NCBI GenBank assembly: GCA_000004695.1
Contig: CM000150.2
Span: 2,176,001-2,240,000 of the forward strand
Direction: 5' to 3'
DNA length: 64,000 bases
From: Dictyostelium discoideum
Lineage: Eukaryota
Made by a program: the position numbers. Position 1 is the stretch's first letter, and each line of letters opens with the position of its first letter. Below are positions 44,526-49,600 of the stretch, piece after piece.

Positions 44526-47500
44526 AAACAATTTTTAAAGATTTTTTTTTTATTCACTTTTTTTTTTTAATTTTTAATTTTATTGCTTTAAAAAACATAA
44601 AAATCTTTTAGATATTTTTAGATTTTCAGGATTTTTTTTAGATTTTTTTTAAAAAAAAAATAAATTAAAATTTTTATTTTTTTTTATATAAAATTGTAGT
44701 GATTACTCTAGTGTGAATTTTTAATATTTTTTTAATCTTGATTATTCGAATAATCAGAAAAATAAAAAAAAAAAGATATTAAAATTAAAATGACGTGTGA
44801 TAACCTAAATAATTTTAATTTGAAATTTCGTATGATCTTGCTTTTGAATAATTTTTAGTAATATTATTATTTAAAAAACTTATAAATAAGGGTTTTTTTT
44901 TTTTTTTTTTTTTTTTATTATTTTATATTACTAAACATTGAATCAACATATATATTAATAGTTTTATAAAAAAAAAAAAAAAAAATAAAATAAAAATAAT
45001 AATATAAAGAATAGAAAAAAAAATAAAAAAATATATAAAAAAAATAAATAAAATTATAATTCAATAATTATTTATAAAATTTTAAAAATGAAATATATTT
45101 CTTTTTTTGTTACTTTAATATTAATTTCAATTTTAAATAATTTTGTTTTATCATCAGGTACAACAGTTAGTGAAGTTACATTAATAGTAAATTTAAATAA
45201 TAATAATAATTATCCAGAGAATGGAACTTGTGGTAGTACTCAATTAACATGTAATAATATAAATGATGCATTTAATTATTTTAATACAATTGCAGTTAAT
45301 GTTAATACAAGTTCACAAATCATTTATCAACAATTAAACCTTTTATTAGATGATGGTACTTATTCCATTGGAACAACAACAATTAATTTATATCAATATA
45401 ATATAACAATTTCACCATTAAATTCAGGTTCAAATAAAGTAATAATTAATAATAATAATAATTCACCAATGTTTTCTGTAATACCATTTAATAGTACTGA
45501 TGATAGTATTTGGCAAAATTCATATATTTTAATTACTGGAATTCAATTTTTAAATTTTAAACAATCAATTATTAAAGTTTCCACCATTTATTCATTTACT
45601 GATATTAAATTTCAATCATGTATTATTAATCAATATAATTCAAAAAGTTCAATTATTGAAATTAATCTATCATTTCAAGGAAGTTTACAAATTCCAAATA
45701 GTCATTTAAAAATTAATAATTCTCAAATTTCAAATATTCAAACTGATAATAATACACCATTGATTTTTGCCATTAATACTATTATTGATTTTAATCAAAA
45801 TTCAATTACAAATGCAACTGGTATTCATAGTTTTATTTCAACATCATATGGTGAATATTTAAATGTAGATTTTTCAGATTTTACAAATGTAAATAGTTCA
45901 TATGGTATTTTTGAAGTTACAAATACACATGCTTCAATTGGTGATGGTAATTACAATAATATCCAAGCAACAAGAGGTGCATCGGTTTTAACATTTACAA
46001 AAAGTGTAACTCAAGTATACTCTGCTGCTATTGCTCGTTGTAATTTCAATGGTTATAGTGGTACTAATGGTGGTGTTTTCCAAGGTTTAAATACATTAAC
46101 AAGTTTAGAAACTATTAGTTCAAGTATTTCTCAATGTACTTTTTCAAGTGGTAGTTCAAATAGTGGTGGTGCAATTTATTCAAACAATATACCACTTTCA
46201 ATTGTAAATTGTGATTTTGGTAATAATAGTGCAAGTCTTACTGGTGGATATATTTATATAAGTGGTAATTCATTATCTTTAGTAAATGTATCAATCACCA
46301 AAGCACCACTTCCTATTACTACCACTACCAATACAATAGTTGGCGATGGAATTGGTGGTTATGCTCTTTATGCTTTAAATTCAACTGTTAATATTAATAA
46401 TGGTACTTTTGGTGGTAAACTTGATTCAATCTTTTGCAATGGTTCAACAATTAATGCTGATCAATACACTACATTACAATCAGTTTATTGTAGCAATTGT
46501 AATGTAGAAGTAAGTAATAGACAAGTTTGTAATTTTGGTGGTGATTCAACTTCAACCTCAACTTCAAATTCAGGTACTGGTACTGGTACTGGCACAGGAG
46601 GAGGTATTAGCATTAGTAGTAGCAGTGGTGGTGCTAGTCAAACTCTAACTATCACCTCAACAAGTTCAACTCCTCAAACTTCTGCTTTAACTTCCAGCTC
46701 AAGCTCAGGTTCTGTTCATACTACTGTATCAACAATAACTACGACAGGTTTTACAAGCCAATCAAACCAATTTTCACCTTCTTTTTCAATTTTTATTTTT
46801 ATTTTATTACTTTTAATTTTATCGGTTCAATAAAAAAAAAAAAAAAAAAAAATAAAATTTTTTTTGTGAAAAATCAAGTACCTATAAAATTTTTTTTGTG
46901 AAAAATAAAATACCACATTTTATCAAAAAAAAAAAATAAAAAAAAATAAAATTATGATCATTTTTTAAAGCAAAATTAAAATAAAAATATAAATAATAAA
47001 TTTTAAAAATGAAATTTATTTCTTTTTTTATTACTTTAATTTTAATTTCAATTTTAAATAATTTTGTTTTATCATCAGGTACAACAGTTAGTGATGTTAC
47101 ATTAATAGTAAATTTAAATAATAATAATAGTTATCCAGTTAATGGGTCATGTGGTAGTAGTACTCAATTAACATGTAATAATATAAATGATGCAATTAAT
47201 TATTTTAATACTATTGCAGTAAATGTTAATAGAAGTTCATCACAAATCATTTATCAACAATTGAATCTTTTATTAGATGATGGTAATTATTCAACAACAG
47301 CAACAACAACAACAATTAATTTATATCAATTTAATATAACAATTTCACCATTAAATCCAAGTTCAAATAAAGTTATAATTAATGGTTTAAATTCAAATTC
47401 ATCAATGTTTTCTGTAACTCCATTTAATGGTATTGTAGATAGTAAGGGGCAAAATTCATATATTTTAATCACTGGAATTCAATTTTTAAATTTTAAACAA

Positions 47501-49600
47501 TCAATTATTCAAGTTTCAACCAATTATTCATTCACTGATATTAGATTTGAATCATGTATAATTGATCAATACAATTCAAATAATTCAATGATTGAAATTA
47601 ATAAATTAATTAGTCAAGATTTAATATTACCAAATAGTCATTTAAAAATTAATAATTCTCAAATTTCAAATATTCAAATTGTTAATAATGCATCATTAAT
47701 TTATGCAATTAATACAATTATTGGTATTTTTCAAACATCAGTTATCAACGCAACTAATGTTCAAAGTATTATTGAAATTTCATATGGTCAAAATTTAGAT
47801 GTTGAATATTCAGATTTCTCAAATGTGAATAGTGTTTATGGTATTTTCAATGTTTTAAATACTCAAGTCTCAATTGGTGATGGTAATTTCAATAATAACA
47901 TAGCAACAAATGGTGCATCAGTTTTAACATTTACATCAAATGTCACTAGTGTATACAATGCTGGTGTTGCTCGTTGCAATTTCAATGAGAATAGTGGTAC
48001 TGATGGTGGGGTTTTCCAAGGTGTAAATACAGATTCAAGTTTGGAAGATTACAGCTCAAGTATCACCAGTTGTACTTTTTCAGGTAGTAGTGCAAATAAT
48101 GGTGGTGCAATCTTTGTAGATAATATACCTCTTTCAATTGTTAATTGTCAATTTAGTGATGTCACTGCAAATGTTGCTGGTGCATTTGTTTATAATAGTA
48201 ATAATCATTTTGCAATGACAAATGTTACATATACTGAAAAATCATTAAATACTACAAAAACAAAAACAGCAACAACATCTGGAATTGAAGAATATGCTAT
48301 TTATATTTCAAGTTCAAGTGGTTCAATACAAAATGCTACATTTGATGATAATAGTTATTCAATTTTTTGTAATACTTCAACTGTTAAAATTGATGCAACC
48401 TCTAAGGTATCAACATTTACTTGTGCTCAGTGTAATATGGTTTTAGGTCAAAATCAAATTTGTAGTGTTGGTGGAAGTTCAGTTTCAAGCTCAACTTCTG
48501 CTTCTGGTTCAAGTTTGTCTGTAAGTAGTAGTGGTGCTCAATCATTAACTGTCACTTCAACAAGTTCAACTCCTCAAACTTCTGGTACAGGTTCAAGTTC
48601 AAGTACAAGTTCAAGTACAGGTTCAAGTACAAGTTCAAATTCTCATACTATTATTACTACCACAACAACTGGTGTATCTAATCAATTATCACCATCATTT
48701 TCAATTTTAATTTTCATTATTTTATTATCATTACTTTTAATTCAATCATTTTAACTTTTTTTTTTTTTCTTTTATCATTTTTAAAAAATAAAATTTCCAA
48801 TTCAATCAAATAATAAAGAAAATTTAAAAACTAAATAAAAATTAATTAGCATAATATTTAACCAATTTTTTATTTTTTTTTTTGTTTATTTTTGATAAGA
48901 CTTTTAAATATAAATTTTAAAAAAAAAATAATTGTGAAATTAAAACAAAATTCAAAAACAGTATAGATTAATAGGGTTGTTCGAATAATAAAAAATTTTT
49001 TTAAAAAAATTAAAAAAAAAAAAAAAAAAAAAAACCCCAAAAAATTAAAAATAAGATATTAGGGTTTTTCATGATGAAAAAACCCAATAACTTTTTTTTT
49101 TTCCAATCAATTTTTATAATATAAAAAAAAAAAAAAAACTAAAAAAATATCTTTTTTATAATAGCGCTATTATGCTTTTTTATTAAAATTAATTATTTTT
49201 TTTAATTTTTTATTACATTTTTGAAAATCAAGCAATGGCGATTTTTGGTTGGCCCCATTTCCATAAAATTTGATTTTTTTTTTTTTAATTTTTTATTACA
49301 TTTTTGGAAATCAGGCAATGGCGATTATTTTTTTTTGGTTAACCCCCTTTTTTATTTTAATCACTTAAAATTTTAAGAGTTTAAAATAAAAAATCAAAAA
49401 TTTCTATTTTTTTTTTTTTTTAACAAAATCCTTAATTTTAATTTTAATTTTTTTTTTTTATTTTTTATTTTTAAAGAGATAAAATGCCCCAAAATAAAAG
49501 TCAAACAATAAAACTATCTCATTTTTTAAGAGATAATCTTCTTAACTATCCAGTAAGTTCAAATAAATTTATTTATTTATTTATTTATTTATTTCTTTGT

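Follow-up and report, generated by a model that had tools for sequence, protein, structure and literature searches.

A 64,000-nucleotide stretch of the Dictyostelium discoideum AX4 genome (contig CM000150.2, positions 2,176,001 to 2,240,000; hereafter the window, whose numbering is used throughout; G+C around 22%) contains two adjacent genes, DDB_G0268844 (A) and DDB_G0268846 (B), whose sole annotation among the D. discoideum AX4 models is hypothetical or uncharacterised. A preliminary description of the window had proposed that they are adjacent 581-residue paralogues, and this is borne out: the two same-strand open reading frames (ORFs) encode proteins that are 65% identical over 486 residues, and the genes are 77% identical at the nucleotide level. 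Each protein is predicted to consist of a signal peptide, a right-handed parallel β-helix that includes a few degenerate rungs of the type known from chlamydial polymorphic membrane proteins (Pmps), a Ser/Thr-rich stalk and a tail resembling a glycosylphosphatidylinositol (GPI) attachment signal. The features below were placed by hydropathy, alignment, composition and AlphaFold2 (AF2) models, the last with their predicted local distance difference test (pLDDT) scores.

45088..46833, + strand: gene A (DDB_G0268844), single-exon ORF, 581 residues plus stop; ORF call with a 100% match to the NCBI protein.
45088..45153, + strand: A residues 1–22, signal-peptide-like N terminus (MK, hydrophobic core, VLS/S); hydropathy and −3/−1 rule, a lone helix at 2–20 in the AF2 model.
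45154..45327, + strand: A residues 23–80, N-terminal cap with invariant Y42, C48, G49, C55, D60 and A61 and a capping helix at 58–70; 17- and 25-sequence alignments and AF2.
45328..46539, + strand: A residues 81–484, predicted right-handed parallel β-helix of about 12–13 rungs, with a four-Cys C-cap (C450, C468, C471, C481).
45976..46287, + strand: A residues 297–400, degenerate Pmp-type rungs (C318-N-F..G328-G329; C350-T-F..G360-G-A-I-Y; C375-D-F-G-N-N-S-A..G386-G-Y-I-Y); register test and unit model.
46540..46755, + strand: A residues 485–556, Ser/Thr/Gly-rich stalk, predicted disordered; composition and pLDDT of about 27–36.
46756..46830, + strand: A residues 557–581, GPI-signal-like C terminus, with a polar spacer to NQFSPS, hydrophobic FSIFIFILLLLILSV and a final Q; rule-based.
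46834..47008, no strand: A/T-rich intergenic spacer of 175 bp; from the sequence.
47009..48754, + strand: gene B (DDB_G0268846), single-exon ORF, 581 residues plus stop; ORF call with a 100% match to the NCBI protein (P0005).
47009..47074, + strand: B residues 1–22, signal-peptide-like N terminus; hydropathy and −3/−1 rule, helix at 2–20 in the AF2 model.
47258..48472, + strand: B residues 84–488, predicted right-handed parallel β-helix, with a four-Cys C-cap (C454, C472, C475, C485).
47912..48223, + strand: B residues 302–405, degenerate Pmp-type rungs (C323-N-F..G333-G334; C355-T-F..G365-G-A-I-F; C380-Q-F..A390-G-A-F-V-Y); alignment to A.
48473..48673, + strand: B residues 489–555, Ser/Thr stalk; composition and pLDDT of about 30.
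48674..48751, + strand: B residues 556–581, GPI-signal-like C terminus, with spacer NQLSPS, hydrophobic FSILIFIILLSLLLI and a final QSF; rule-based.

The two ends of each protein largely follow the layout first proposed for them. At the N terminus, MK is followed by a 14-residue hydrophobic core, and the −3/−1 rule offers several candidate cleavage sites at about residues 22–24. The stalk is evident from composition, with 60% Ser/Thr over residues 485–556 of A and 69% over residues 489–555 of B and 0–1 charged residues; part of it in B is encoded by a 6/12/18-bp tandem repeat (48585–48642, GTTCAA-type units in about 3–9 copies), which is a likely source of variation in stalk length. At the C terminus, a hydrophobic run of about 15 residues stops 1–3 residues short of the end of both proteins, and the last charged residue lies so far upstream of this tail (95 residues from the C terminus in A and 115 in B) that a cytoplasmic domain is absent. 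The N-glycosylation sequons, described earlier as dense, are not above chance: A has 15 and B has 16 N-x-S/T sites, compared with around 16 in composition-preserving shuffles, and 12 positions are kept in at least six of eight close relatives.

Candidate omega sites for GPI attachment, assigned by eye from the alignment, are G554 or S557 in A and G555 (G-V-S) in B, and a conserved TTG with a polar spacer to NQxSPS lies at the distance expected of such a site by rule of thumb; a literature search for Dictyostelium omega-site rules returned nothing usable. By rule, then, GPI anchoring of A and B is plausible. A different topology would be a short C-terminal transmembrane (TM) anchor with essentially no cytoplasmic tail, or shedding or secretion into the medium. 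An automated rule check found clean omega candidates in some family members but not in all, a few relatives (P0013 and P0017) have Lys or Asn within or just after the tail, and the Pmp-repeat proteins of trichomonads are anchored by a C-terminal TM helix. Nonetheless, the hydrophobic run of A and B is only about 15 residues long, no basic stop-transfer residues follow it, and TTG and the NQxSPS spacer are conserved at the expected distance, so that we regard a non-GPI topology as the less likely reading. A GPI anchor would also fit an established Dictyostelium arrangement. Both csA/gp80 and PsA consist of a signal peptide, a globular ectodomain, an O-glycosylated Ser/Thr(/Pro)-rich stalk and a lipid anchor signal, and the predicted layout of A and B resembles theirs, which argues for lipid anchoring over a TM helix. 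The ectodomain folds of csA and PsA are unrelated to that of A and B, and their induction during development differs from the expression of B in the growth phase.

Between cap and stalk, AF2 models of both proteins contain stacked short strands with the N-terminal capping helix ahead of the stack. The model of A, built on a nine-sequence alignment, has a mean pLDDT of 67.5, rising above 90 over residues 150–330, and its 38 short strands over residues 81–475 correspond to about 12–13 rungs of around 31 residues. For B, with a 25-sequence alignment, the mean is 76.6, with 268 residues at 90 or higher and most ten-residue blocks across residues 84–486 at 85–98. These models, including their similarity to solved structures, place A and B in the right-handed parallel β-helix (pectin-lyase-like) fold.

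Carbohydrate-active enzymes (CAZymes) and phage tailspike depolymerases also include right-handed β-helices (AlgE4, PL6, GH87, GH110, K1 lyase and the P22 tailspike), and A and B could in principle be surface or secreted glycan-active enzymes, such as polysaccharide lyases, hydrolases or epimerases, that work on the capsules of bacterial prey or on the amoeba's own matrix. Unlike such enzymes, however, A and B have no conserved catalytic-type residues in the helix body and match no CAZyme family profile; their identity to the enzymes is 7–16%, and their relatives at the sequence level are Pmp-repeat ‘outer membrane repeat’ proteins rather than enzymes. Across 17 family members, columns of Asp, Glu, Lys, Arg, His, Trp or Tyr conserved at 70% or more occur only in the N-cap, and in the helix body (residues ~100–484) not one Asp, Glu, Lys, Arg or His column reaches that level; charged residues make up 7–9% of the A and B core. 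This absence of acidic or basic conservation makes binding likelier than glycan cleavage. An enzymatic role, rejected here because catalytic-type residues are not conserved in the helix body, appears improbable to us.

Which β-helix proteins are A and B related to? The likeness to Pmps had first been suggested by repeated GGAI and FxxN motifs, and this survives in part. GGx followed by a hydrophobic residue is enriched in A, with four occurrences against 0.77 expected (reached by 0.5% of shuffles), and marginally so in B, with two against 0.47 (7.5%), but exact GGA(I/L/V) occurs once per protein and FxxN at chance frequency. Because the counts of FxxN and of sequons do not exceed composition-matched chance, neither is used as evidence here. 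The element that does recur, three times in succession, is a CxF...GG rung (C318, C350 and C375 in A; C323, C355 and C380 in B). A Pfam search, the check first proposed (Chlam_PMP, Beta_helix), gave nothing relevant for A or B at E ≤ 10, and NCBIfam likewise gave nothing.

Several lines of evidence nevertheless support homology at the level of profiles. First, a family hidden Markov model (HMM), built from the stalk-free core of nine members and searched exhaustively against 1.84 billion representative proteins, matched 3877 proteins at E ≤ 1e-3, with E-values down to 1e-44; word-indexed searches were overwhelmed and failed to recover known members of the family, leaving this exhaustive search as the informative one. 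Around ten of the matches are full-length relatives. The remainder are long proteins with up to 26 separate matching stretches each, confined to profile positions ~240–400. Among sampled non-Dictyostelium multi-repeat matches, 11 of 13 pass the Pfam threshold for Chlam_PMP and 7 pass that for Beta_helix too, and in named-database searches precomputed PF02415 and/or PF13229 assignments accompany 11 of 13 non-family matches.

Second, the matches are in register. Across 139 proteins, which contribute 996 aligned stretches, G360-G-A-I-Y364 of A is aligned with Gly (96%), Gly (96%), Ala (65%), Ile, Val or Leu (86%) and Tyr (52%), and C375, F377, N380 and A382 with Cys (61%), Phe (89%), Asn (90%) and Ala (84%). 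At the non-consensus positions Y323, G355, S357 and Y388 of A, the matches keep Asn, Asn, Ala and Ala; because they hold to the consensus where A departs from it, what is shared is the Pmp unit as such, C-x-F-x-x-N-x-A-x3-G-G-A-I-Y.

Third, an alignment from which A and B were left out matched a Chlam_PMP protein in hhalign with 93% probability (E 3e-7, 147 columns), and reversed or shuffled versions of 133 matched proteins gave 0 matches of 133, whereas all 133 native sequences matched. With an HMM of 26 canonical units, A shows a single complete unit (residues 372–391, 14.8 bits) together with half-units, a total that none of 500 shuffles reaches. The relatives P0011 and P0015 have sub-threshold Chlam_PMP matches, and another dictyostelid protein, Heterostelium PPL_10079, lies above the Pfam threshold for Chlam_PMP.

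These results bear on convergence, in which Asn- and Gly-rich β-helix rungs would drift towards FxxN...GG(A)I with no common ancestry. The failure of Pfam Chlam_PMP and TIGR-type models to match and the presence of a single canonical unit, in A only, are compatible with such drift, as is the report that Pmp-like rungs of different phyla share little besides the two motifs (PMC10715098). We consider it quite unlikely, given the strength of the profile matches, their extent over around 150 columns and several rungs including the non-consensus positions of A, the hhalign result with its empty controls, and the Chlam_PMP matches within the family and in Heterostelium. The Pmp character of A and B is real but vestigial: homology holds at the profile level, with FxxN and GGA in the same register as in the broad Pmp-repeat (PF02415-type) group, but it covers only around three to four degenerate rungs (residues 297–400 of A and 302–405 of B), with one complete unit, in A.

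The two proteins can be compared with several known systems. Chlamydial Pmps are by definition type V autotransporters that combine 9–25 regular rungs with a middle region and, at the C terminus, a β-barrel (PMC10715098). With Chlamydia trachomatis PmpD and PmpE and C. pneumoniae Pmp21, A and B share a right-handed β-helix, probably surface-exposed here as it is there, and rungs of the form C-x-F-x-x-N-x-A...G-G-A-(I/L/V)-Y; in A and B, however, most of the helix is non-Pmp, and it lies between a putative eukaryotic signal peptide on one side and the Ser/Thr stalk with its GPI-like tail on the other. Neither the Pmp middle region nor the autotransporter barrel (PF03797) is matched in A or B by Pfam or NCBIfam, and where Pmps have the barrel, the AF2 models place a disordered Ser/Thr stalk and a single hydrophobic helix. 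Since 9–25 regular rungs that each pair FxxN with GGA(I/L/V), a middle region and a barrel are all lacking, A and B are not members of the Pmp family; they belong to a wider cross-domain set of β-helix proteins with Pmp-type rungs.

Trichomonad Pmp-repeat surface proteins, such as TVAG_212570 and TVAG_140850, are likewise without a middle region and autotransporter part; they have a TM helix at the C terminus, and their overexpression increases adhesion (PMC6701047). They resemble A and B, as predicted here, in being eukaryotic secretory-pathway proteins with FxxN and GGA(I/L/V) repeats and C-terminal anchoring. Their canonical repeats are numerous, however, and they possess an ATPITK motif and a true TM helix, in many cases with endocytic motifs on the cytoplasmic side, whereas in A and B the repeats are few and degenerate, the stalk is mucin-like, the caps are rich in Cys and a cytoplasmic tail is missing. 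Bacterial β-helix adhesins and passengers (Vag8, pertactin, UpaB and EtpA, and PfbA and SRRP of Gram-positive bacteria) are more remote, with 7–15% identity, no detectable sequence relationship and anchoring by a β-barrel or LPXTG.

A and B are members of a young amoeba gene family. Traced relatives that match beyond the Pmp-like rungs come only from the D. discoideum complex, D. citrinum, D. firmibasis and D. dimigraforme, and none from D. purpureum or other genera was seen among the traced matches. Further AX4 members are DDB_G0279497, DDB_G0289575 and the more distant DDB_G0293200, the last two labelled ‘Right handed beta helix domain-containing’ in UniProt. All full-length members follow a common plan: signal peptide, N-cap with the six invariant residues listed above for A, β-helix and four-Cys C-cap, followed by a Ser/Thr stalk that differs greatly in length among members and by a hydrophobic tail at the end.

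The pair itself is syntenic in D. citrinum, D. firmibasis and D. dimigraforme, between genes for pyridoxal kinase and a sacsin-like protein, so that the duplication is older than the separation of these species and D. discoideum. This agrees with the age implied by the original suggestion of an older duplication under purifying selection, but not with uniform divergence; the 5′ part has undergone conversion, and constraint is moderate and apparent only between orthologues. Similarly, the divergence of about 30% first noted is an average and hides a gradient between A and B from 92% identity at the N terminus to around 35% at residues 400–480.

This gradient has a different history at its two ends (residues in A numbering). 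Over residues 1–160, A and B of the same species are 86.5–98.8% identical, compared with 65–80% between species, and synonymous divergence (dS) is 0.10–0.16 within species and 0.23–0.41 between orthologues. Over residues 401–484 the relation is inverted, with 35–55% identity between A and B within species and 51–80% between orthologues. In neighbour-joining trees of the eight sequences (A-type and B-type from four species), residues 1–160 cluster by species, whereas residues 321–400 and 401–484 each give an A clade and a B clade that contain all four species. The contrast between species-wise and type-wise trees indicates that the 5′ part has been repeatedly homogenised by gene conversion, while residues 321–484, the stalk-proximal part of the ectodomain, persist as two old types. 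Ratios of nonsynonymous to synonymous divergence (ω, Nei–Gojobori) are 0.38–0.55 between orthologues over the core and 0.74–0.89 between A and B, reaching 1.3–1.4 at residues 401–484.

The D. dimigraforme locus has some peculiarities. Its A-type orthologue (L002 5518–7461) is 647 residues long, owing to about 46 consecutive Asn residues and a second Asn/Asp/Gly-rich insertion inside the β-helix region, and its first 60 residues are identical to those of the adjacent B-type protein. Between the B-type and sacsin-like genes lies a 715-residue gene on the minus strand (L002 10110–12257) with around 20 tandem ‘LPNxLxxLSFGxxFNQPI’ repeats (FNIP-like or leucine-rich-repeat-like), whereas the window, D. 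citrinum and D. firmibasis have no such gene there.

Expression separates the two genes. In transcripts per million (TPM) from strain AX2, sampled in axenic HL5 growth and, after purification from fruiting bodies, as separate cell types (PMC6198379, supplementary file 2), A gives 0, 0.03 and 0 in cup, 0.12, 0.10 and 0.04 in stalk, 0, 0.40 and 0 in spore and 0 and 0.06 in vegetative cells. The values for B are 0.11, 0 and 0 in cup, 0.01, 0 and 0 in stalk, 0.03, 0.83 and 0 in spore and 7.87 and 8.82 in vegetative cells. B is a low-level growth-phase transcript, and in all four of these cell types A is silent. Neither gene identifier was matched in a full-text literature search; the supplement of PMC6198379 contains both.

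Could the pair be a matched surface cassette of two genes for self/non-self or mating recognition, resembling tgrB1/tgrC1? Two adjacent genes for probable surface proteins, of two conserved types, found in one clade only and evolving fast (ω of 0.4–0.55 between orthologues and above 1 between paralogues at residues 401–484), would be in keeping with such a role. Yet B is on in axenic growth but not in the cell types of the fruiting body, A is silent in every cell type sampled, and Pfam finds no IPT/TIG or other tgr-like domains. Furthermore, tgrB1 and tgrC1 share a promoter region, an arrangement unlike that of A and B, which lie on the same strand. Supported by neither domains nor expression data, tgr-like kin recognition is a very remote prospect for this pair.

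Taking these observations together, we favour with moderate confidence a reading in which A and B are glycosylated, GPI-anchored surface proteins that present a non-enzymatic, binding β-helix on a stalk. The proteins would enter the secretory pathway, where the ectodomain is probably N-glycosylated and the stalk of around 70 residues O-glycosylated, and a GPI anchor probably attaches them to the outer face of the plasma membrane. Their functional part would be the rigid right-handed parallel β-helix of about 400 residues, closed by a Cys-containing N-cap and the four-Cys C-cap, with the three to four rungs directly ahead of the C-cap being of the degenerate Pmp type. AlphaFold analyses of chlamydial Pmps assign their motifs to buried rung packing, with an Asn ladder at turn T2 and GGA at T4, rather than to exposed binding sites (PMC10715098); by analogy, the CxFxxN and GGA(I/L/V) residues of A and B would serve buried packing and not ligand contacts. 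Binding, as an adhesin or lectin-like receptor, would then probably use the faces and loops of the helix, and B would work in growing amoebae.

In evolutionary terms, recurrent gene conversion would keep A and B of a species nearly identical in their 5′ part, which encodes the membrane-distal portion, and the maintenance of residues 321–484 as two types across species suggests two non-redundant partners or roles. Since the membrane-distal part of the helix is nearly identical in A and B within species while the stalk-proximal rungs and C-cap form two types across four species, A and B might even make up a two-component surface recognition module, either a heteromeric receptor or two receptors with a common ligand-binding tip and different partners. 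We offer this as a speculation with little likelihood of being right; if it were true, growing amoebae might recognise the glycans of bacterial prey through tailspike-like binding without cleavage.

Several points weigh against the view of A and B as anchored binding proteins with a Pmp-type β-helix. Neither protein is recognised by any curated model (Pfam or NCBIfam), and B is weak when taken alone, giving only fragments against the canonical-unit HMM with a score that 12 of 500 shuffles reach. A profile search of PDB sequences returned only chance matches, for example Rpn2 at E 0.19, and many of the top structural neighbours are enzymes. AF2 is known to over-predict β-solenoids, but for perfect repeats, and those of A and B are imperfect. 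The Asn ladder and the burial of the motifs are assumed from the Pmp models, and the short TM anchor or release into the medium discussed above is an alternative to the GPI anchor. Finally, in the sole expression dataset found, B is low and A is absent, and protein-level evidence for either was not found.

The surroundings of the pair are as follows. The spacer between the genes is only 175 bp long, so that the 3′ end of A and the promoter of B must both fit within it. Tandem Repeats Finder reports a 32-bp direct repeat in two copies there (ATAAAATTTTTTTTGTGAAAAATAAAATACCT, 93% match, 46852–46914), which could be part of the promoter of B or of the 3′ end of A. The upstream neighbour is the pyridoxal kinase gene (43371–44365; Phos_pyr_kin/PfkB in the orthologous loci), present in the window as two ORFs (43371–43712 and 43973–44365), presumably with an intron between them. 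Downstream, at 49796–58074, lies a very large sacsin-like gene of the HATPase type (PF25794 SACS in the orthologous loci), whose ORFs (49796–50128, 50283–53921, 54161–55900 and 56014–58074) are interrupted by A/T homopolymer introns. Elsewhere in the window, G+C peaks at 28001–32000 (0.27–0.32), with a GC skew of +0.26 to +0.39 and a negative AT skew, overlapping a 2122-residue minus-strand ORF at 28411–34779.

Pmp-type rungs outside Chlamydia, including in eukaryotes, and an automatic β-helix label on related AX4 proteins are already documented. New here are the placing of the two genes and of a family confined to one clade, the variant with a stalk and a probable GPI anchor, repeats eroded so far that they fall short of curated thresholds, and the mosaic left by gene conversion. 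The result is a useful annotation; it leaves current understanding in place and reveals no new type of biology. It provides a predicted fold, a likely topology and a role open to testing for two AX4 genes so far called ‘hypothetical’ and for their family, and worn-down repeats such as theirs are seen to escape curated models. Pmp-type rungs are extended to a probably GPI-anchored, mucin-stalked protein of a free-living amoeba, and the probable GPI anchor and stalk represent an anchoring solution distinct from both the bacterial autotransporter and the trichomonad TM helix. The locus also offers a clean natural case of partial gene conversion in a genetically tractable organism. If B binds bacteria or substrate, it would represent a new receptor class among the poorly known adhesion and prey-recognition molecules of growing Dictyostelium.

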